A DNA stretch of 64,000 nt from an uncultured Lachnospiraceae bacterium (GCA_964393975.1 CAYMVO010000004.1:4101-68100); one strand, 5' to 3'. Shown: positions 14,405 to 55,642, numbered from the stretch's first letter. A program made the numbers and translations. Notes: generated from the sequence alone by a model not told the origin.

Positions 14405-16951
14405 TTACTCTTGCTCGCTTTTAATATCATCTGAAATATTTTCAGCGACCACGACACCATTGATTTCATCGTTTGCATTTTCGCTTGTCTCTTCAAGCTC
14501 TTCGTGTTCTACCACTGCCACTGACACAATTTTAGCACCATTAGCGAGTTTCATTATCCTAACGCCCTTAGTGACTCTACCAATCTTTCTAATATCAGTA
14601 ATAGGTGTCCTTATAATAGTACCATTATCAGTAATCATAATGACGTCTTGAGTCTCATCCACTGTCATAAATGCCACTAGTCCACCGGTGAGTTCGTTAA
14701 ACACCCCCGCCTTAGTACCTTTACCGCCACGACCTTGCTCTCTGTACTCAGCGATATCCGTTCTCTTGCCGTAGCCGTTTTCCGTGATAGTCAAAATCTC
14801 GGTACCCTCACTCACAATAGTCATACCAACAACGGTCTCGCCGTTAGATAGATTTATACTCTTGACACCTTGCGCACTACGAGAGGTGTTTCTTATTATG
14901 CCCTCATTAAAGTTTATACACTTACCGCTAGAAGATCCCAATAAAATGTTATTTTCACCGTTAGTCAAATGTACACCAATGAGTTCATCACCCTCACGTA
15001 AAGTGATAGCAATTTTACCGTTCTTTCTAATTTTATCAAATTCTTTAGACTCAGTCTTTTTGATAAGTCCGAGTTTTGTAGCCATAATAAAGTTGCCCGC
15101 ATCACCCTCTTTTCTTCTAACCACAGCAGACACTCGCTCGGTCGCATCCAAAGGTAATAGGTTTATAATAGCCCTACCCTTAGCGGTCCTTTGCGCCTCA
15201 GGTATCTCGTATGCCTTGATTACATACACTTTGCCTTTATTAGTAAAGAATAACAAATCATCGTGTGTATTAGTGGTGAATAGTCTCTCCACAAAATCTT
15301 CATCTTTAGTCTTATGCGCGGTCACACCGACACCACCTCTATGTTGCGCACGATATTCACTGACAGGCAAACGTTTTACATAACCTAAATGTGTCATACT
15401 AATAACAACGTCCTCTCTAGGTATCAAATCAGCAATATCAATATCATCATAATTGATACATATCTCACTTAGTCTAGGAGTGTTGTATTTATCTTTTATC
15501 TCTAAAATTTCTTTCTTAATGATTTCTAGTATTCTAGTTGGAGTGTTCAAAATATCGGTCAATTCAACAATCAATTTTTCTAGTTCGACTAGTTCCTCTT
15601 GTAGTTTGTGTACCTCAAGACCTGTCAATCTTTGAAGTTTCATATCAAGAATAGCGATTGATTGTTTTTCACTGAGCTCAAATCTCTCGCAAAGTTTTAC
15701 AATAGCCTCATTTTTCTCGCTACTAGCCTTTATAATAGCAATAACTTCATCAATATTCGCTAGTGCTATCACTAGACCTTTTATGATGTGCTCTCTCTCT
15801 TTTGCTTTTTCCAAATCAAACTTTGTTCTACGATATATAACTTCTTTTTGATGCTCTAGATAATAGTAAATAATCTCTCTAAGATTTAAAATCCTAGGTT
15901 GTCCATTGACCAATGCCAAGAAAATGATACCGCTCTTGATTTGTAGTTGGGTGTGTTTAAACAACTGATTAAGCACGACATTAGGTTGATAATCTTTCTT
16001 GATATCAATAACGACTCGCATACCGTGTCTATCAGATTCTTCTCTTAGGTCACTAATACCCTCTATTCTCTTATCTTTTACAAGATTAGCGATTTGCTCT
16101 ACTAGTTTTGCCTTGTTTACTTGATAAGGTATTTCGGTGACAATGATTCTACTCTTGCCGTTTTCTAGTTCCTCTATCTCGGTCCTCGCTCTCAAAACGA
16201 CACCGCCACGACCAGTCTTGTACGCTTGTATGATAGGTGTTCTGCCCATAATAAGCGCACCCGTAGGATAATCTGGTGCAGGAATGATATCAATCAGTTC
16301 GTCAACAGTGATATCAGGGTTGTCAATCATTGCTACAACGCCATCAATCACCTCTCCCAAGTTGTGCGGAGGAATATTTGTCGCCATACCCACAGCAATA
16401 CCGTCACTACCATTGACAAGCAGGTTAGGAAATCTACTAGGTAATACGGTTGGTTGCATCAAAGTATCATCAAAGTTAGGATAAAAATCTACCGTTTCTT
16501 TGTCAATATCCCTTAGCAATTCATCGGTGATTTTGCTAAGTCTCGCCTCAGTATAACGATAAGCAGCTGCGCCGTCACCGTCTACAGAACCAAAATTCCC
16601 GTGTCCATCAACGAGTGGACAACGAATACTAAAGTCTTGCGCAAGTCTTACTAGTGCATCGTACACGGAACTATCGCCGTGAGGGTGATATTTACCCAAA
16701 ACATCACCGACAATTTTAGCACATTTTCTAAAAGGTTTGTCACTAGTGAGTCCCATTTCACCCATACCATAAAGTATACGTCTATGTACAGGCTTTAGAC
16801 CGTCTCGCACATCAGGAATAGCACGACTGACATTTACCGCCATAGCATAGGCAATAAACGAATTTTTCAATTCATTAGCAACATCTATCTCAATATATTT
16901 AGTTTTATCAACTATTTTTTCTAGTTCGGTTGAATAATCTTTTTTCTTCAT
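14405..16951 (-). CDS. gyrA: DNA gyrase subunit A
   Basis: 848 aa; HRRILYGM, HPHGDSSVYDALVRLAQ, AAAYRYTEARL (catalytic Tyr), C-terminal beta-pinwheel repeats and acidic tail. Confidence 0.97.
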   Translation of the reverse strand: MKKKDYSTELEKIVDKTKYIEIDVANELKNSFIAYAMAVNVSRAIPDVRDGLKPVHRRILYGMGEMGLTSDKPFRKCAKIVGDVLGKYHPHGDSSVYDALVRLAQDFSIRCPLVDGHGNFGSVDGDGAAAYRYTEARLSKITDELLRDIDKETVDFYPNFDDTLMQPTVLPSRFPNLLVNGSDGIAVGMATNIPPHNLGEVIDGVVAMIDNPDITVDELIDIIPAPDYPTGALIMGRTPIIQAYKTGRGGVVLRARTEIEELENGKSRIIVTEIPYQVNKAKLVEQIANLVKDKRIEGISDLREESDRHGMRVVIDIKKDYQPNVVLNQLFKHTQLQIKSGIIFLALVNGQPRILNLREIIYYYLEHQKEVIYRRTKFDLEKAKEREHIIKGLVIALANIDEVIAIIKASSEKNEAIVKLCERFELSEKQSIAILDMKLQRLTGLEVHKLQEELVELEKLIVELTDILNTPTRILEIIKKEILEIKDKYNTPRLSEICINYDDIDIADLIPREDVVISMTHLGYVKRLPVSEYRAQHRGGVGVTAHKTKDEDFVERLFTTNTHDDLLFFTNKGKVYVIKAYEIPEAQRTAKGRAIINLLPLDATERVSAVVRRKEGDAGNFIMATKLGLIKKTESKEFDKIRKNGKIAITLREGDELIGVHLTNGENNILLGSSSGKCINFNEGIIRNTSRSAQGVKSINLSNGETVVGMTIVSEGTEILTITENGYGKRTDIAEYREQGRGGKGTKAGVFNELTGGLVAFMTVDETQDVIMITDNGTIIRTPITDIRKIGRVTKGVRIMKLANGAKIVSVAVVEHEELEETSENANDEINGVVVAENISDDIKSEQE

Positions 16952-16963
16952 ATCGTAACCCTT

Positions 16964-18895
<1,932 letters not shown>

Positions 18896-19162: not shown

Positions 19163-19199
19163 TTAAAAATTAAAACCGCATAAAAAATCTTTATGCGGT
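19163..19199 (-). terminator. intrinsic terminator after HipT-like kinase paralogue 3
   Basis: Perfect ACCGCATAAA-5 nt-TTTATGCGGT hairpin followed on the minus strand by TTTTAATTTTT. Confidence 0.8.
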
Positions 19200-19212
19200 C
19201 ATAATGGATATC

Positions 19213-20142
19213 TTACAATGATTTTTCAAAATTGTCTATAATGACTTTAGGTCGTATTATGTTTTTCTTATAACAATTCACTAAATCTTTTCTATATTCA
19301 AAAATCTTTTGGCAGTTTTGCAAATATACCTCATCAAACTCTTTTGCCGAGCGATTGTATAAAGTCGTCAAAATCTCGCCAATTTTCAAATCGTTAATGT
19401 CTGATACAAACTTTTTAATTTCTTTATTATTTTTCATTTCCACCACTATTTGCTTAGCCAAATTGTCCACTTCATCATAGTCATACATTTCGTTAGTAAT
19501 AGATAATAATTGATAATCGCCCTTTTCGTATTGATTTAGACTGACAGTAATATATCCGCCTACTTGATGACTGCTCAAGTTAAAACAAGCGCCATTATCA
19601 AACATAGGAGCCATCTTCAGTCCCTTATCACTTATCAAAAACTCAATATTTCCACGGTGCCTATCTGTTTGTGAAAAATAATAATCTAATATAGCCATTT
19701 TGACCAAATCAGACCGTAGTCTTTGACTATCCACAGACAATCCATGTAGACTAGCAAACCGACCTACCGCATTAACGACGTCATCTACACTGGTTTTCAT
19801 ACACATTGAGCACTCATTATTAACGCTACGAATTATTCTACCTAGATTTATTGCTTCTTTTGTATCTTCCTCCCAAAAATGCTCTATCAAAACCCCGTGA
19901 CTCGACTTATTATTTATATCCAAGCACGCAAAGAACGCATTTACACAATTACAACCAAGTATTTTACAAACATAACTATAAAGGACCTCACCAAAACTAG
20001 TAGGCGTCTCATCATTACGAGCAAACCCCATATTCGCTTTGTAAATAAATTTTTTTCCAGTCGGTGTGGTTATTAGCTTTTTTGCCATAATACCTGCTGT
20101 CATTTCCGAGATTTTAAACTCATATTCGTTTAAATTAATCAT
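19213..20142 (-). CDS. HipA-core (HipT-like) Ser/Thr kinase paralogue 3, no N-subdomain
   Basis: 309 aa; GKKFIYKAN, PTSFGEV, DYYFSQTDRHRGNIEF (D-x-H-x-x-N catalytic loop), MAPMFDNG; GAGGTG RBS. Confidence 0.65.
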   Translation of the reverse strand: MINLNEYEFKISEMTAGIMAKKLITTPTGKKFIYKANMGFARNDETPTSFGEVLYSYVCKILGCNCVNAFFACLDINNKSSHGVLIEHFWEEDTKEAINLGRIIRSVNNECSMCMKTSVDDVVNAVGRFASLHGLSVDSQRLRSDLVKMAILDYYFSQTDRHRGNIEFLISDKGLKMAPMFDNGACFNLSSHQVGGYITVSLNQYEKGDYQLLSITNEMYDYDEVDNLAKQIVVEMKNNKEIKKFVSDINDLKIGEILTTLYNRSAKEFDEVYLQNCQKIFEYRKDLVNCYKKNIIRPKVIIDNFEKSL

Positions 20143-20371
20143 TTAATCACCTCTTAAAAAAATAATTAATTAGACATACTCATATAAAAACCTTTTAGCA
20201 TTTTTGCTATTCGTTAAATAGGTAGTTATTCGTTTAATCTAATAGTATTATATCATACTATTATTTTTTTAAAAAGGGGGTATTCAAAATTTATTATACA
20301 ATTTTTATATGTCTAATTTTTTTATTATAAGCATATATTGAATTAAGATTTAGACCACCTAAGGAGTAACA

Positions 20372-21052
20372 ATGAAAGATAATAAAAAAGTTGTTTTAGC
20401 TATCATTTTTATAACAATTTTCTCTATTATAGGTTGTTTTGTTTTGAACGCTTTAGGTCTAGACGATATAAGCAAAATCAAAAATATTATAAGTGATAGC
20501 GCTTTAGGATATGTGATATACACACTCCTTCTCACCTTGCAAATAATCTTTATCCCTATAAACTCTATGGTGCTTATAGTCCCTGCTATGCTAATTTTTG
20601 GCGCTGTTAAGGCATTTATCCTTAGTCTAATTGGATTGGTCATAGGCTCTATAATAACCTTTTATTTAGGTAGGATTTTTGGTAATCAATTAGTGTCGTG
20701 GATGGTTGGATACGAAAAAAGCGAAGAATTAAAGAAAAAGTTAGGAGCAGGTGGCAAACTAATGCTCCCGATACTCTTTCTTATTCCTATATTTCCCGAT
20801 GAACTTATTTGTCTAGTCGCTGGAATAAGCAATATAAAAATCGGTTACTTCACACTAGTCACAATAACGACTAGAGCAATTGATTTAGCGTTTACTTGTT
20901 TTATTGGTGCTATTATACCTTTTCACGGTTGGTGGTTACTACTTTGGGGGATACTATTAATATTATCATTCATAGCATCATATCTATTAGCAAAATATCA
21001 AATATTATTAAAACAGTGGGTAGAAAATCTTTACACAAAGAAAAAGAGGTAA
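20372..21052 (+). CDS. TVP38/TMEM64 (DedA-related) family membrane protein
   Basis: 226 aa; multiple TM segments; PDELICLVAGIS motif; AAGGAG RBS. Confidence 0.7.
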   Translation: MKDNKKVVLAIIFITIFSIIGCFVLNALGLDDISKIKNIISDSALGYVIYTLLLTLQIIFIPINSMVLIVPAMLIFGAVKAFILSLIGLVIGSIITFYLGRIFGNQLVSWMVGYEKSEELKKKLGAGGKLMLPILFLIPIFPDELICLVAGISNIKIGYFTLVTITTRAIDLAFTCFIGAIIPFHGWWLLLWGILLILSFIASYLLAKYQILLKQWVENLYTKKKR

Positions 21053-21059
21053 TTACAAA

Positions 21060-22010
21060 CTACCTCGTAAACGCCATATCTTCATCAACATCAAAATTTT
21101 TAGAATCTTCAGTGTATTTCTCTTTGTAATAATTTTTTAATAAATTTTTTCTATAATTAAATACATCAGCGCAATTTGTCACATATTTATAATTAAAATC
21201 TTTTTCAGACTCATCATAAATTTTTTTCAATAGACTATCAATATCTAGTCTATAAATATCCTCAACAAAGTGTCTCATCTCTTTATCATTTTTTACCACC
21301 TTGCTAATCTGGTCCACCAAATCAATAATGCAACACTCACCCGTCCCCGTCAAACTTTGCCTATTAATTCTCAAATACTGAGCACTACCAATATTGCGTA
21401 AACCTTTTGGCATATCTATTTCATTTCCGCTCATTGAACGCCACAAATTAAAACAATAACCATTATCAAATATAGGTGCGAGCTTCATTTCCTTTTCACT
21501 CACCAAAAACTCTATATTGTCAAAATGTCTATCCGCTTGCGCAAAAAAATAATCTAAAATAGTAAGTTTTATCAAGGATGCGCGACTCTCTTCCTCGTTA
21601 TATTTCAATCCATTATTTTTAGCAAATGACTTTGTCAAAGTGAGTATTTTATCTACGACCATCTCATCACCGTCCATCTCACCAAACAAATTACATCTTA
21701 GAGCAATCTCACCATAACTAAGCGACTCCAATGTATCCTCTTCCCAAAAATAATCTATGAGGGTACCGCTCCTGAGTCTTTCGCCAAGCTCCATTTTTGC
21801 AAACTCCACATTGACACAATTACACCCTAGAGTTTTACAAACTTCGCTATAAAACACTTCGCCAAAACTAGTCGGCAAATCACCTTTATCTCGATATCCA
21901 AAATTTGCCTTAAAGACATATTTCCCATTATCAGTTATAACAATGCTTTTAGGTGTAGAACCTTCCAAAAGTTGCATCGTTTTATATTGTATCCTTCTCA
22001 AATCGACCAT
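21060..22010 (-). CDS. HipA-core (HipT-like) Ser/Thr kinase paralogue 2, no N-subdomain
   Basis: Start set at MVDLRRIQ (ATG 22010, GGAGTG RBS). GKYVFKAN, PTSFGEV, DYFFAQADRHFDNIEF, LAPIFDNG. Confidence 0.65.
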   Translation of the reverse strand: MVDLRRIQYKTMQLLEGSTPKSIVITDNGKYVFKANFGYRDKGDLPTSFGEVFYSEVCKTLGCNCVNVEFAKMELGERLRSGTLIDYFWEEDTLESLSYGEIALRCNLFGEMDGDEMVVDKILTLTKSFAKNNGLKYNEEESRASLIKLTILDYFFAQADRHFDNIEFLVSEKEMKLAPIFDNGYCFNLWRSMSGNEIDMPKGLRNIGSAQYLRINRQSLTGTGECCIIDLVDQISKVVKNDKEMRHFVEDIYRLDIDSLLKKIYDESEKDFNYKYVTNCADVFNYRKNLLKNYYKEKYTEDSKNFDVDEDMAFTR

Positions 22011-22257
22011 AAAATCACTCCTAACCAATAGCTATAGAGACTAAGATTAATACAAACACGCGCTCACACGCTTTATAAAATCTTAATAAACTCATCAAAC
22101 TAAAATCTTAGATTTTTATTTTTTAGCTATTTAAACCACCCACAAACCCATTAAAGTAAACTCATACAAAGTAATCTAAAAATGACAAGTCTCTCTCGCA
22201 TTATTCTTATATTTTTTAATAGTTTAGTAAATAGTTTCTATAAATAGCCTTGCAAAA

Positions 22258-23250
22258 CTAAATAAACCTTTCCTGCGCGCACGCATTGTTATTTATCGTA
22301 TGAGGAATGTTTTTAGTCTTCATACTCTTAATATCTTTCATCATTTGTGTATGTTCAACGGCATCCATTCTTCTAGCAAAATTTTTAAGCAACTGCTTTC
22401 TATACTCAAAAATTGCTCGACAATTTTCCACGTAGTCAATATCAATCTGCTTGTCCGATTCGATATAGACATCTTTTAAAATCTCATCCATATCCAAATT
22501 GTAAATATTAGATACGAGTTCTCTTATTTCAGGGGACTTTTTCGCAGTAACATAAATTTGCTTTGCTAAATCTTTCGTCTTATCGTCAGCACTATCAGTA
22601 TTAGCCATTCGCAAAAATTGTGGATACCCGCGCTCTATATACTCACTTCTGGATACGATATCGCCGTTTTCCTTTTCGCGCCACAAGTTAAAGCAAAAAC
22701 CATTATCAAATATAGGTGCAAGCTTCATCTCTTTTTTGCTTATCAAAAACTCTATATTATCAAAATGTCTATCCGCTTGCGCAAAAAAATAATCTAAAAC
22801 CGCCATTTTTGTGAGACATTTTTTAGCGTTTTTAGCGTCAAATTTCAGTCCCATATTCTTCGCAAAAAAACTAGACAAATCAATCACATCATCTATAACC
22901 ACATCATCACCAAAAGAAAGGTCTAGCAAATCACTTTTTTGCATAATATCGCCAAAACTAATCGTCTCTAACGTATCTTTTTCCCAAAAATAATCAATGA
23001 GTGTACCGTGACTTAAATTTTTATCAATAAACATTTGCGCAAAGACCGCATTTACACAATTACAATTAAGTCTTTTACAAACTTTACTATAAAACACTTC
23101 ACCAAAACTAGTCGGTACTTCTTTTTTCTCTACAAACCCGCAATTCGCTTTAAAGACATATTTACCACTATCAGTCACAATGAGTCTTTTAGCATTGATG
23201 CCATATACCATATTTACGCTTTTGTGTCTTATTTTGCATAAGTCAATCAT
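22258..23250 (-). CDS. HipA-core (HipT-like) Ser/Thr kinase paralogue 1, coupled to HipS-like ORF
   Basis: Start set at MIDLCKIR (ATG 23250..23248), overlapping the upstream stop as ATGA. GKYVFKAN, PTSFGEV, DYFFAQADRHFDNIEF, LAPIFDNG. Confidence 0.7.
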   Translation of the reverse strand: MIDLCKIRHKSVNMVYGINAKRLIVTDSGKYVFKANCGFVEKKEVPTSFGEVFYSKVCKRLNCNCVNAVFAQMFIDKNLSHGTLIDYFWEKDTLETISFGDIMQKSDLLDLSFGDDVVIDDVIDLSSFFAKNMGLKFDAKNAKKCLTKMAVLDYFFAQADRHFDNIEFLISKKEMKLAPIFDNGFCFNLWREKENGDIVSRSEYIERGYPQFLRMANTDSADDKTKDLAKQIYVTAKKSPEIRELVSNIYNLDMDEILKDVYIESDKQIDIDYVENCRAIFEYRKQLLKNFARRMDAVEHTQMMKDIKSMKTKNIPHTINNNACAQERFI

Positions 23251-23573
23251 ACAGCTACTTCCACCCAATATTTATCTTGATTTTGCGACAAGAAAGCAAA
23301 CTTTTTGAGCATGGTAAAATCGTCATCTTTTTTAGATATTTTAGCGGATAGCATAATATCCATTCTCATACGCACACTCTCTACAATCTTACCAAACTCA
23401 CTAAAAAGCTCTTTACTTCTCAAATTGTTTGAGCCACTCAAACTATAAAAATTACTAGTAACGTATTTTTTAAACGCACTTTCACCTTCTATATTTGAAT
23501 TGTAGACATATTCATCGCCGTCTTTGGTCAATTCACCTAAAGTAATTTCTTTAAAATGTAGTATAATTTTCAT
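23247..23573 (-). CDS. HipS-like small protein (resembles HipA N-terminal subdomain 1)
   Basis: 108 aa from ATG 23573 (GAGG 5 nt upstream). KEITLGELTKDGDEYVYNS parallels the HipA N-terminus (..VGELTKL..). TGA overlaps the kinase ATG. Confidence 0.55.
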   Translation of the reverse strand: MKIILHFKEITLGELTKDGDEYVYNSNIEGESAFKKYVTSNFYSLSGSNNLRSKELFSEFGKIVESVRMRMDIMLSAKISKKDDDFTMLKKFAFLSQNQDKYWVEVAV

Positions 23574-23589
23574 AAACACCTCTACCTAA

Positions 23590-23618
23590 AGTATAACATT
23601 AACGTCAAAATATGTCAA
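23590..23618 (-). promoter_or_regulatory. sigma-A-type promoter for the HipS-like/HipT-like pair
   Basis: Minus strand TTGACA-17 nt-TATACT, 16 nt upstream of the RBS. Confidence 0.55.
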
Positions 23619-23630
23619 TAGTGATATCAT

Positions 23631-23680
23631 AAAACATTGTGTCGCTTCGTCTAGCAACTAGACCTATAAACGACACAATA
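23631..23680 (-). terminator. terminator after the lipoprotein gene
   Basis: ATTGTGTCG...CGACACAAT 9-bp arms with inner TCTAG/CTAGA pairing, then GTTTTAT on the minus strand. Confidence 0.55.
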
Positions 23681-23694
23681 TCACATAGTTTCTA

Positions 23695-24321
23695 TTAATA
23701 CTTAACGCTAAAATCAATATTATAATTTATATCATTATATGTATAAGTAAACTCAGCATTTTTCATAGTGCTATCTTGATTTAAGGCAATAGTAATATTT
23801 AAATCTTTTACACCCTCAAACAAAAACACACTATAAAAATCATTCTTTACGCTAGCAGAAAATGTATCCTTTTCTTTATTTATAGTAAAATTTTCAAAAT
23901 AATTTGTTTTTATAGGATTTTTAACACTACTCCACTCGCCAGTGACTTCTGTCACCAGTCCTTCACGCCATATTATTTCACCATTTACGGTTTCTCCAAC
24001 CTGCCCGTCAAAATAATACTTTGTACTTTCGGTGATTTTATACAAATCGGTACTATCAAGTGATAATTCATTTAGCTTTTTAGTAATAGTCTTTAAAGTT
24101 AGCATTTTCTTGCCGTCTTTTTCACTGACTACAAGCGTTTGACTATCATACAATTCGTGCTCTCCCGCCATAAAAGAAACGACTTTTGTAAATTCGGTTC
24201 CAACACTAGCGTTGTTATACGCATTTATAAAATCGTCCTCATTCAACTCTTTTGCGCATCCCGCAATCAAAAAACACATACATATCACGCACGCAAAAGA
24301 CGCTAAAATCTTACCTCTCAT
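23695..24321 (-). CDS. lipoprotein, unknown function
   Basis: 208 aa; lipobox FLIAGC (Cys22); ATG overlaps the stop of the upstream gene (ATGA at 24318-24321), with AGGAGG inside the upstream ORF end. Confidence 0.7.
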   Translation of the reverse strand: MRGKILASFACVICMCFLIAGCAKELNEDDFINAYNNASVGTEFTKVVSFMAGEHELYDSQTLVVSEKDGKKMLTLKTITKKLNELSLDSTDLYKITESTKYYFDGQVGETVNGEIIWREGLVTEVTGEWSSVKNPIKTNYFENFTINKEKDTFSASVKNDFYSVFLFEGVKDLNITIALNQDSTMKNAEFTYTYNDINYNIDFSVKY

Positions 24322-42347: not shown

Positions 42348-42422
42348 GCCCTCATGGTCAAGTGGTCAAGACGCTAGCCTCTCACGCTGGAATCAGGGGT
42401 TCGACTCCCCTTGGGGGTACCA
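42348..42422 (+). tRNA. tRNA-Glu (anticodon CUC), CCA encoded
   Basis: Hand-folded cloverleaf: acceptor GCCCTCA/TGGGGGT (two G-U pairs), D stem GTC/GAC, anticodon stem CTAGC/GCTGG with loop CTCTCAC, T arm AGGGG-TTCGACT-CCCCT, then A-CCA. Confidence 0.85.
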
Positions 42423-55482: not shown

Positions 55483-55642
55483 TTAGAAAACCTCCTATTT
55501 AGTTGCAACAAAAAAACTCTTGCATTGCGTGAGTGGTCGCAAGAGTCTTTTACAATCTCCTAATAGCGAACCTCGGTAAGCGCAATTTAAGGTCAAAGGT
55601 GACCGCTTACTGTCTTAAGCCCTACAATGTTTTTAAAATTAC
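55483..55642 (-). ncRNA. L10 (rplJ) leader with internal intrinsic terminator (attenuator)
   Basis: About 160-nt 5' UTR between the consensus promoter and rplJ. Minus-strand hairpin ACTCTTGC-15 nt-GCAAGAGT plus T7 (plus coordinates 55510-55546), consistent with Firmicute L10-leader autoregulation. Confidence 0.55.

Follow-up and report, generated by a model that had tools for sequence, protein, structure and literature searches.

We analysed a 64,000-nucleotide (nt) stretch of DNA from an uncultured Lachnospiraceae bacterium (GCA_964393975.1 CAYMVO010000004.1:4101-68100), called the window here and scanned over its whole 64 kb, in which three paralogous genes for short HipA-like kinases (K1, K2 and K3) lie with a single gene for a small partner protein (S) next to gyrB and gyrA. 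All genes are on the minus strand unless stated otherwise. The open reading frame (ORF) of S (23247-23573) encodes a HipS-like protein of 108 amino acids (aa), a putative antitoxin or regulatory subunit, which starts with MKI as in its homologues. It is followed by K1 (22258-23250), encoding a short 330-aa Ser/Thr kinase of the HipA superfamily with a C-terminal QERFI tail; the start of K1 and the stop of S overlap by 4 nt, and K1 is translationally coupled to S. K2 (21060-22010) encodes a 316-aa paralogue with intact motifs and has an AGGAG ribosome-binding site before its ATG at 22010. The 309-aa paralogue K3 (19213-20142) adjoins gyrB, with its own upstream region and its own terminator, and has no S. 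All three kinase genes were delineated from ORFs, profiles and motifs. Between K2 and K3, on the plus strand, is a gene for a membrane protein of the VTT/DedA type (20372-21052; Pfam VTT_dom, E=3.7e-20), and gyrB (16964-18874) is the downstream neighbour of K3, with gyrA (14405-16951) downstream of gyrB.

S is the single small partner ORF at the locus for the three kinases, as the first-pass annotation of this sequence had stated, and tblastn across the window found no fourth kinase copy. That annotation also gave upstream gaps of 229 bp for both K2 and K3. The value holds for K3, where the gap is bounded by the divergent VTT gene and not by K2; the K1-K2 spacer measures 247 nt from the ATG at 22010, and 229 only from an in-frame TTG at 22028. 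The spacer between K3 and gyrB is 338 nt long. The gene upstream of S encodes a 208-aa lipoprotein without a Pfam match (23695-24321), the 121-nt spacer upstream of S holds no helix-turn-helix ORF, and no mobile-element genes flank the locus.

The three kinases are mutually 44-48% identical (K2 48% and K3 45% to K1), with 108 invariant columns. They all keep the lysine K34 (xFKAN), the catalytic loop D160-R-H-x-x-N165-I-E-F and the F-D182-N-G motif, and their catalytic residues D160, H162, N165 and D182 align with D155, H157, N160 and D179 of CtkA. The earlier claim of three catalytically intact paralogues is thus borne out, and the inactivating changes in K2 or K3 that would have spoken against it were not seen at the invariant catalytic residues. 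These intact motifs suggest that all three are active kinases. The Gly-rich loop, within the first 25 residues, is reduced to G17-x-x-x-K21 (GINAK, GSTPK and GIMAK in K1, K2 and K3) and is most divergent in K2 (EGSTPK); in the gyrB-linked relatives described below it reads GG(I/V)xEK, near the GAQxK of HipA. Some of these gyrB-linked kinases (L004, L007 and L009) have the catalytic-loop His replaced (VQVDRNSKN, QIDRGTNN, QADRGPHN) with Asp and Asn kept, so that the His is not universally required in the kinase family.

Profile searches pointed to the HipA_C superfamily for the kinases, as had been proposed. Pfam HipA_C (PF07804) matched K1, K2 and K3 with 24.5, 28.4 and 21.0 bits against a gathering cut-off of 30.5 (E=2.5e-5, 1.6e-6 and 2.9e-4), the K3 alignment being near full length, and the homologues P0004, P0005, P0008 and P0012 have precomputed PF07804 matches. 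NCBIfam returned traces of YjjJ only. The strongest match was to the PADLOC profile PDC-M03A (PDLC04340), with E=6e-18, 1.3e-17 and 1.3e-16, covering residues 2 to ~290 of the kinases and positions 4-278 of the 280 in the profile. A profile built from 12 members of the kinase family and compared with the PDB matched CtkA best (3AKJ, E=1.2e-4); the Legionella kinase HipT(Lp) followed at E=0.057, and Escherichia coli HipT was absent at E<=10. By these profile comparisons, K1-K3 are short HipA-superfamily kinases nearest to PDC-M03A (HipI/HipJ type) and to CtkA, and fall outside the HipT clade. The label 'HipT-like' given to them at first sight is therefore apt as an analogy with a split kinase and not as a statement of membership, there being no HipB here and marginal or absent similarity to HipT.

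S itself has no sequence match in Pfam, NCBIfam or PADLOC (including PDC-M03B at E<=0.1), nor in a library of PDB chains searched with two S profiles. An exhaustive profile search for S homologues yielded 148 representative clusters, nearly all of them stand-alone proteins of 103-115 aa. Pfam Couple_hipA (PF13657) matched 6 of 129 S-family representatives (best E=1.5e-4) and was the sole family matched more than once; PADLOC PDC-M03B matched 14 of the 129 (best E=1.5e-8), and no HIRAN domain was among the families reported for them. An AlphaFold model of S from a 38-sequence alignment, obtained by profile search, reached a pLDDT of 92.2 and a pTM of 0.83, and replaced an earlier model from 5 sequences (pLDDT 70) that had matched HipS weakly. 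In a Foldseek search of the PDB with this model, ranks 1-16 were all HipS or HipA's N-terminal domain. Against stand-alone HipS chains of E. coli HipBST (7AB3, chains E and B) and Legionella (8EZR_A, 7VKB_B) the TM-scores were 0.57-0.68 with probabilities of 0.87-1.00 (7ab3_E, probability 1.00, TM 0.61/0.65; 7ab3_B, TM 0.64/0.68; 8ezr_A and 7vkb_B, probability 0.97). The structural model, with transitive sequence support, indicates that S is a HipS-like protein with the fold of HipA N-subdomain 1, in line with its original designation. S-like domains also occur in four longer proteins of 269-341 aa (P0117, P0148, P0169 and P0187), and one member of the S set carries a Tpt1/KptA RNA 2'-phosphotransferase domain (E=9.8e-23).

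We consider it reasonably probable (about 0.6) that a split HipA-like kinase module has undergone a lineage-specific expansion at this locus. Each unit would combine a short core kinase lacking HipA N-subdomain 1 with a separate S protein of 105-115 aa that has the HipS fold; by analogy with HipBST, S would bind the kinase and keep it inactive. The paralogy and intact motifs of the kinases and the HipS fold of S support this reading, as do the remnant of a further S gene, the mosaic signal of gene conversion, and the synteny and co-divergence with gyrBA to which we now turn.

The conserved position directly before gyrB-gyrA, missed by the first-pass annotation, is the most informative context of the module. 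In a scan of species-representative genomes no close relative turned up; the best kinases there were 29-35% identical and came from Christensenellales and uncultured Clostridia metagenome-assembled genomes (MAGs). In 13 independent loci, which include every further divergent S-family locus fetched (L004, L005, L006, in which S is fused to gyrB, L007-L010, L040, L042, L044, L045, L047 and L049) the order is a murG-like gene on the opposite strand, K, S, gyrB and gyrA; the P0011 group is the only exception found. Outside the clade of the window, 13 of 14 loci thus have the K-S pair at the gyrBA site. In the ten loci with measured spacing, K overlaps S or almost touches it, and S is separated from gyrB by 8-24 nt (76 nt in one locus), leaving no space for a terminator and a promoter; K and S would almost certainly be co-transcribed with gyrBA in these Christensenellales-like loci. 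Identities among the ten loci are 79-95% for GyrB, 28-73% for K and 37-79% for S, and the divergence of K and S tracks that of GyrB (Spearman 0.80 and 0.61, respectively), which indicates that the pair has been vertically inherited at the gyrBA site while evolving fast.

Several observations accompany this linkage. In the exceptional P0011 group S precedes K and the pair lies elsewhere in the genome; in one locus of this group (L037, 6757-15013) the genes after the pair are three without annotation and one for a 1520-aa DUF4011/AAA_11/AAA_12 helicase, resembling a defence-island context. In L006 (6900-9119 of CAKVEY010000001.1, an uncultured Clostridia MAG), S is fused in frame to gyrB in a 739-aa ORF, residues 1-89 of S running into GyrB from residue 2 onward (...NDYEILE joined to NTLAKSYNAKDIEVLEG...); this may be a genuine fusion by deletion or may stem from faulty assembly, and it occurs in one MAG only. 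In L001 (299-1804), L040 (505-2019) and L044 (1-950), Ppx-GppA is encoded 4-9 kb upstream of the kinase genes, a hint that the synteny shared around gyrBA extends further. Nothing relevant came from literature searches that paired HipS with gyrB or CtkA with HipA.

These data bear on the best-surviving alternative to a lineage-specific expansion, namely that the locus belongs with the classical type II toxin-antitoxin or abortive-infection modules, being of hipJS/hipIN (PDC-M03) type, that it chiefly serves phage defence or addiction, and that its gyrase neighbourhood is functionally meaningless. The paralogues would then be diversified toxins, directed for example against different aminoacyl-tRNA synthetases, with one HipS-like antitoxin neutralising them all. 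Characterised HipA and HipT kinases do target aminoacyl-tRNA synthetases (PMC8262856, Table 1), the kinases match the candidate defence component PDC-M03A over their full length, and distant members of the S family match PDC-M03B. K and S also evolve far faster than GyrB, as expected of conflict genes, and copy number and the ratio of S to kinases vary between close relatives. PDC-M03 is described as pairing a HipA protein with a HIRAN-domain protein (PMC13245101), an arrangement that matches hipIN in Gerdes et al. (2021; PMC8262856). PDC-M03 is itself a candidate system only, for which our literature search found no experimental validation, and the locus has neither a HIRAN domain nor a DNA-binding antitoxin nor flanking mobile-element genes. 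The patchy, horizontally mobile distribution expected of a type II toxin-antitoxin is not borne out: the same chromosomal site within the gyrBA transcription unit, together with co-divergence with GyrB, amounts to vertical, core-genome behaviour. This behaviour argues against a purely selfish module, whereas a role in conflict is favoured by the rapid divergence of the genes and by the candidate-defence match in PADLOC. On balance we hold the toxin-antitoxin alternative to be possible but doubtful.

The same linkage could be read in the opposite direction, with the K-S pair as a regulator domesticated to act alongside DNA gyrase, and with no selfish toxin-antitoxin involved. As the two leading genes of the gyrBA operon, K and S would come under supercoiling-sensitive control, and the pair would phosphorylate gyrase or replication or topology factors. 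If so, the paralogues in the window would be a subfunctionalised expansion, and the L006 fusion would be a Rosetta-stone hint of a physical link between S and GyrB. We regard this regulatory role as improbable.

A single-sequence search of 5.8 billion proteins recovered only 12 kinase clusters and 5 S clusters, so the family is rare. The related contig L001 has the order lipoprotein gene, S1, K332, K314, S2, K370, VTT and gyrB, with no kinase gene between VTT and gyrB; it thus has two S genes for three kinases. K1 is orthologous to Ka (Ka332) of L001 and to P0003 (neighbour-joining bootstrap 78%), and K3 is basal in its clade (88% bootstrap). The ratio of one S to three kinases, singled out earlier as unusual, is real in the window and represents a recent lineage-specific state, with 2:3 in L001 and 1:1 in the distant relatives. 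In one metagenome sample (ERZ27279226) L001, with its S-K-K-S-K-VTT-gyrB arrangement, co-occurs with L035, which is window-like (S-K1-K2-VTT) as far as that locus reaches. A C-terminal tail NN-x-x-x-QE[RK]xF (AQERFI, VQEKGF, VQERSF, AQERFF) is present in K1 (22258-22290 in the window), in Ka and Kc of L001 (10970-10999 and 13370-13400), and in P0003 and P0010, and is missing from K2, K3, Kb, P0006 and P0007. K1, Ka and Kc each stand directly behind an S gene; the tail may be a partner- or regulation-related motif.

The comparison with L001 also bears on the origin of the K2 arrangement. K2 and K3 had been described as solo copies with no S-like ORF in front. Neither gap has an intact one, yet a second S gene, decayed and with stop codons (psi-S2; 22038-22158, minus strand), is present between K1 and K2, where tblastn, nhmmer and local alignment detected it. 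The tblastn matches of S proteins fall in this spacer, and with a DNA profile of three S genes run against the S-masked window, the top nhmmer match was 22138-22059 on the correct strand (E=0.0028). In one frame the spacer reads NLRF*FDEFIKIL*SV*ARVCINLSL (asterisks marking stops), where S2 of L001 has YLKSKVLFDEFSEIVKNVRARADIMNEA over the same stretch. Local alignment of the spacer with L001 S2 gave z=7.3, a score attained by none of 1000 dinucleotide shuffles; the alignments with L001 S1 (z=3.7) and with S of the window (z=1.5) were both weaker. The decayed S2 implies that K2 lost its own partner, and we read K2, on this sequence evidence, as a recently orphaned kinase and not as a primary solo copy. 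Neither tblastn nor nhmmer found an S remnant on the correct strand beside K3, whether in its upstream gap or in the gap between K3 and gyrB.

The predicted transcription signals point the same way for K2. A promoter-like site upstream of S (23590-23618, minus strand; TTGACA-17-TATACT with TG) matches 11 of 12 positions, as a consensus match only. The consensus scan found no promoter-like site in the K1-K2 spacer, which has only a weak 5-bp hairpin, so that S, K1 and K2 probably form one operon. A hairpin scan placed a terminator-like structure at the K2 stop (21046-21066, minus strand), common to the convergent VTT gene, and another of 12 bp with a T-run just 3' of K3 (19174-19200, minus strand). 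The likely transcription units are S-K1-(psi-S2)-K2 and K3 alone, and the K3 terminator and a separate gyrB promoter region would uncouple K3 from gyrB. Two further repeats lie in these intergenic regions. A 12-nt inverted repeat with a 20-nt loop (ATTGTGTCGCTT / AAACGACACAAT; 23636-23679), between the lipoprotein gene and the promoter-like site of S, is a possible terminator of the upstream gene or an operator, and a 24-nt near-perfect palindrome (TAATAGTATTAT/ATCATACTATTA; 20240-20263) in the divergent K3-VTT spacer coincides in part with TATAAT-like sequences and might serve as an operator. In Rfam, the window matched no more than one tRNA and one ribosomal protein L10 leader (42348-42419 and 55501-55637), with no rRNA.

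The decay of S2 raises the question whether K2, or K3, is itself a relic nearing pseudogenisation after partner loss, with S-K1 as the only functional pair and the intactness of the others due to recent loss and patching from K1 by gene conversion. Besides the decayed S gene before K2 and the missing promoter-like site of its own, this account can draw on the Gly-rich loop of K2, on the tail lacking from K2 and K3 and present in all S-coupled kinases, and on within-species single-nucleotide polymorphisms (SNPs), which are 3 nonsynonymous to 1 synonymous in K2, with one (D164H) in the catalytic loop region, compared with 0 to 4 in K1. K2 and K3 are nevertheless full length with every catalytic residue invariant although they are 38-48% identical to the other copies, which implies long independent evolution without a stop or frameshift; S2 has meanwhile decayed past recognition over most of its length. 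Strain variants of the 247-nt spacer carry a 1-nt indel and 2-3 SNPs, and those of the 951-nt K2 gene 0-3 SNPs (densities of ~1% versus 0-0.3%), which also speaks for psi-S2 as a remnant. In the other assemblies that have K3, the gene is intact as well. The conversion tracts described next span only ~130 nt and would be unable to maintain a 950-nt ORF. Decay of K2 or K3 therefore has little chance of being the right account.

K1 and K2 had been reported to share 41 of their first 73 residues and a perfect 40-nt block, and both counts are exact. The block lies at 22760-22799 in K1 and at 21520-21559 in K2 (minus strand in both), extends by 0 nt on either side, and encodes LDYFFAQADRHF of the catalytic loop; in K1 it forms the core of a ~130-nt conversion tract. 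Of 15 paralogue and orthologue pairs, this one has the longest stretch of identity, the next being 24 and 23 nt. In a codon alignment K1 and K2 are 61% identical at the nucleotide level overall, 98% over codons 155-170 and 89% over codons 150-165. In the catalytic-loop segment K1 is 78-80% identical to its orthologue Ka, and the L001 paralogues Ka and Kc are 96% identical to each other. Codons 40-80 and 160-180 hold 19 sites that group by genome and 5 that group by orthology, whereas in codons 220-320, the C-terminal half, 23 sites group by orthology and 2 by genome. Short-tract conversion has thus made the paralogues alike, within each of the two genomes compared, at the catalytic loop and in an N-terminal segment; for the block, the first-pass annotation had suggested conversion or recent duplication. 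Overall, paralogue nucleotide identity is 53-68% and synonymous sites are saturated. In strain L003, whose contig is otherwise 99.98% identical, a G>C change at 21521, the D164H of K2, falls inside the block, so that the perfect identity of K1 and K2 is strain-specific.

We give little credence to purifying selection on the catalytic loop with extreme A+T codon bias, and no conversion, as the source of the 40-nt identity: the block does encode the most conserved peptide of the family (LDYFFAQxDRH), and 55-65% of codons are identical at identical amino acids in every pairwise comparison, so that runs of identical codons are expected, but the other 14 pairs reach at most 24 nt over the same conserved peptide, K1 is 98% identical to its paralogue K2 and 80% to its orthologue Ka with the reciprocal pattern in L001, and the A and F of AQADRHF are limited to K1 and K2 of the window where nine other clade members have T and R/S. 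Codon bias alone is insufficient for such a run; short-tract conversion between paralogues within each genome accounts for it.

The lineage-specific expansion of a split kinase module can thus be outlined as follows. The ancestral state, one K followed by one S directly before gyrB-gyrA, would be the one retained in the Christensenellales-like Clostridia. The module would have been duplicated in the lineage of the window, with K3 keeping the gyrB-proximal position, with its own terminator and without S. S-K1 would be the intact coupled pair behind a strong promoter-like site, and K2 would formerly have had its own S2, intact in L001 and here reduced to a remnant of ~100 nt. K2 would probably be expressed by read-through from S-K1 and depend on the single S in trans; S would then silence K1 and, via co-transcription, probably K2, and K3 may be under control in trans, regulate itself by autophosphorylation, or lack control altogether. 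We infer the activity of the kinases, such inhibition by S, its extension to K2 and K3, the operon structure and any toxicity. Through the conversion tracts, the surfaces of K1 and K2 that contact S or form the active site may stay compatible with one S.

Several points weigh against this outline. The HipA_C scores of all three kinases lie under the Pfam gathering cut-off. Sequence-only links from S to HipS are weak, S of the window having no profile match of its own, and hhalign of the S family with 11 HipA N-domains aligned the first hairpin only (E=0.45, not significant). S stands before K1, opposite to the gene order of the gyrB-linked relatives, and GyrB of the window is only ~50% identical to that of the Christensenellales group, so that the shared gyrB adjacency could be convergent or transferred and not ancestral; the adjacency of K3 to gyrB is either old or was acquired with the module. 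The placement of K2 in the tree has 34-40% support, and its orthology with K370 of L001 consequently rests on position and on the S2 remnant. The SNP counts of K2 and K1 hint that K2 is less constrained, in tiny numbers whose difference is not significant.

HipA-family kinases are the founding persistence toxins, and the split HipS/HipT systems are a recent addition to them. The locus has three unreported features: the decay of partners to one S for three kinases, the concerted evolution of the catalytic loop, and, in related lineages, a conserved position heading the gyrBA operon. It represents a branch that exceeds the published catalogue in having a HipS-only partner and no DNA-binding component, in being vertically inherited inside the gyrase operon across a clade of gut Clostridia that includes relatives of Christensenella, and in a lineage whose three kinases, with one live and one dead partner, are kept alike by gene conversion. 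It also offers a natural experiment in which one putative HipS-like inhibitor faces several kinases, with one live and one dead partner gene, and a testable connection between a HipA-like kinase and DNA topology, whose value would be high if the gyrase link is functional. If the link is positional only, the locus would still exemplify the dynamics of a toxin-antitoxin-like gene family by duplication, partner loss and concerted evolution.

Among known systems, the closest likeness is to hipJS and hipIN of clade XI (Gerdes, Baerentsen and Brodersen 2021; PMC8262856). HipI, HipJ, HipG and HipM are short core kinases of 279-321 aa without HipA N-subdomain 1 (PMC8262856), and no more than two hipJS modules are listed there. 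The locus resembles them in its core kinases of ~280-330 aa without N-subdomain 1 and with an N-terminal Gly-rich loop, in a separate partner with a HipS-like domain, and in the lack of a HipB-type helix-turn-helix antitoxin; the 13 gyrB-linked loci also share the hipJS order of kinase first and HipS-like gene second. It differs in that S lies upstream of K1, nothing S-like lies downstream of any kinase, and three kinases face one S. The 108-aa partner, unlike HipN or PDC-M03B, has no HIRAN domain, and neither the position before gyrBA nor co-divergence with GyrB has been described for hipJS or hipIN.

In the HipBST systems of E. coli O127 and Legionella pneumophila (7AB3, 8EZR, 7VKB), the architecture is split: HipS is the counterpart of HipA N-subdomain 1, and its gene lies immediately upstream of the kinase gene and is coupled to it, as in S-K1. 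HipS supplies the missing N-subdomain and inhibits HipT (PMC8262856, PMC10627512, PMC9325769). Legionella HipBST is conserved across a genus and not patchy (PMC10653801), a trait shared by the gyrB-linked family. A HipS-like gene stands directly upstream of K1, as a decayed remnant upstream of K2, and not upstream of K3. Unlike HipBST, the locus has a lipoprotein gene and no HipB gene upstream, and its similarity to HipT in sequence is marginal; the Gly-rich loop is the non-canonical G-x-x-x-K, and no equivalent of the autophosphorylation sites S57 and S59 of HipT can be assigned.

CtkA (JHP940) of Helicobacter pylori (3AKJ) is reported to be secreted and to act on the host; its gene lies in a plasticity zone and is not known to have a HipS-like partner. 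It is likewise a stand-alone HipA-like core kinase, of 325 aa, with DRHxxN and xFDxG motifs; K1-K3, unlike CtkA, look cytoplasmic and are paired with S. Caulobacter crescentus hipBA1-3 also place several HipA-family kinase paralogues in one genome, with diverged surface regions and possibly different targets (PMC8262856). Each of these has its own HipB and its own locus, whereas the kinases described here are clustered, share one partner and undergo gene conversion.

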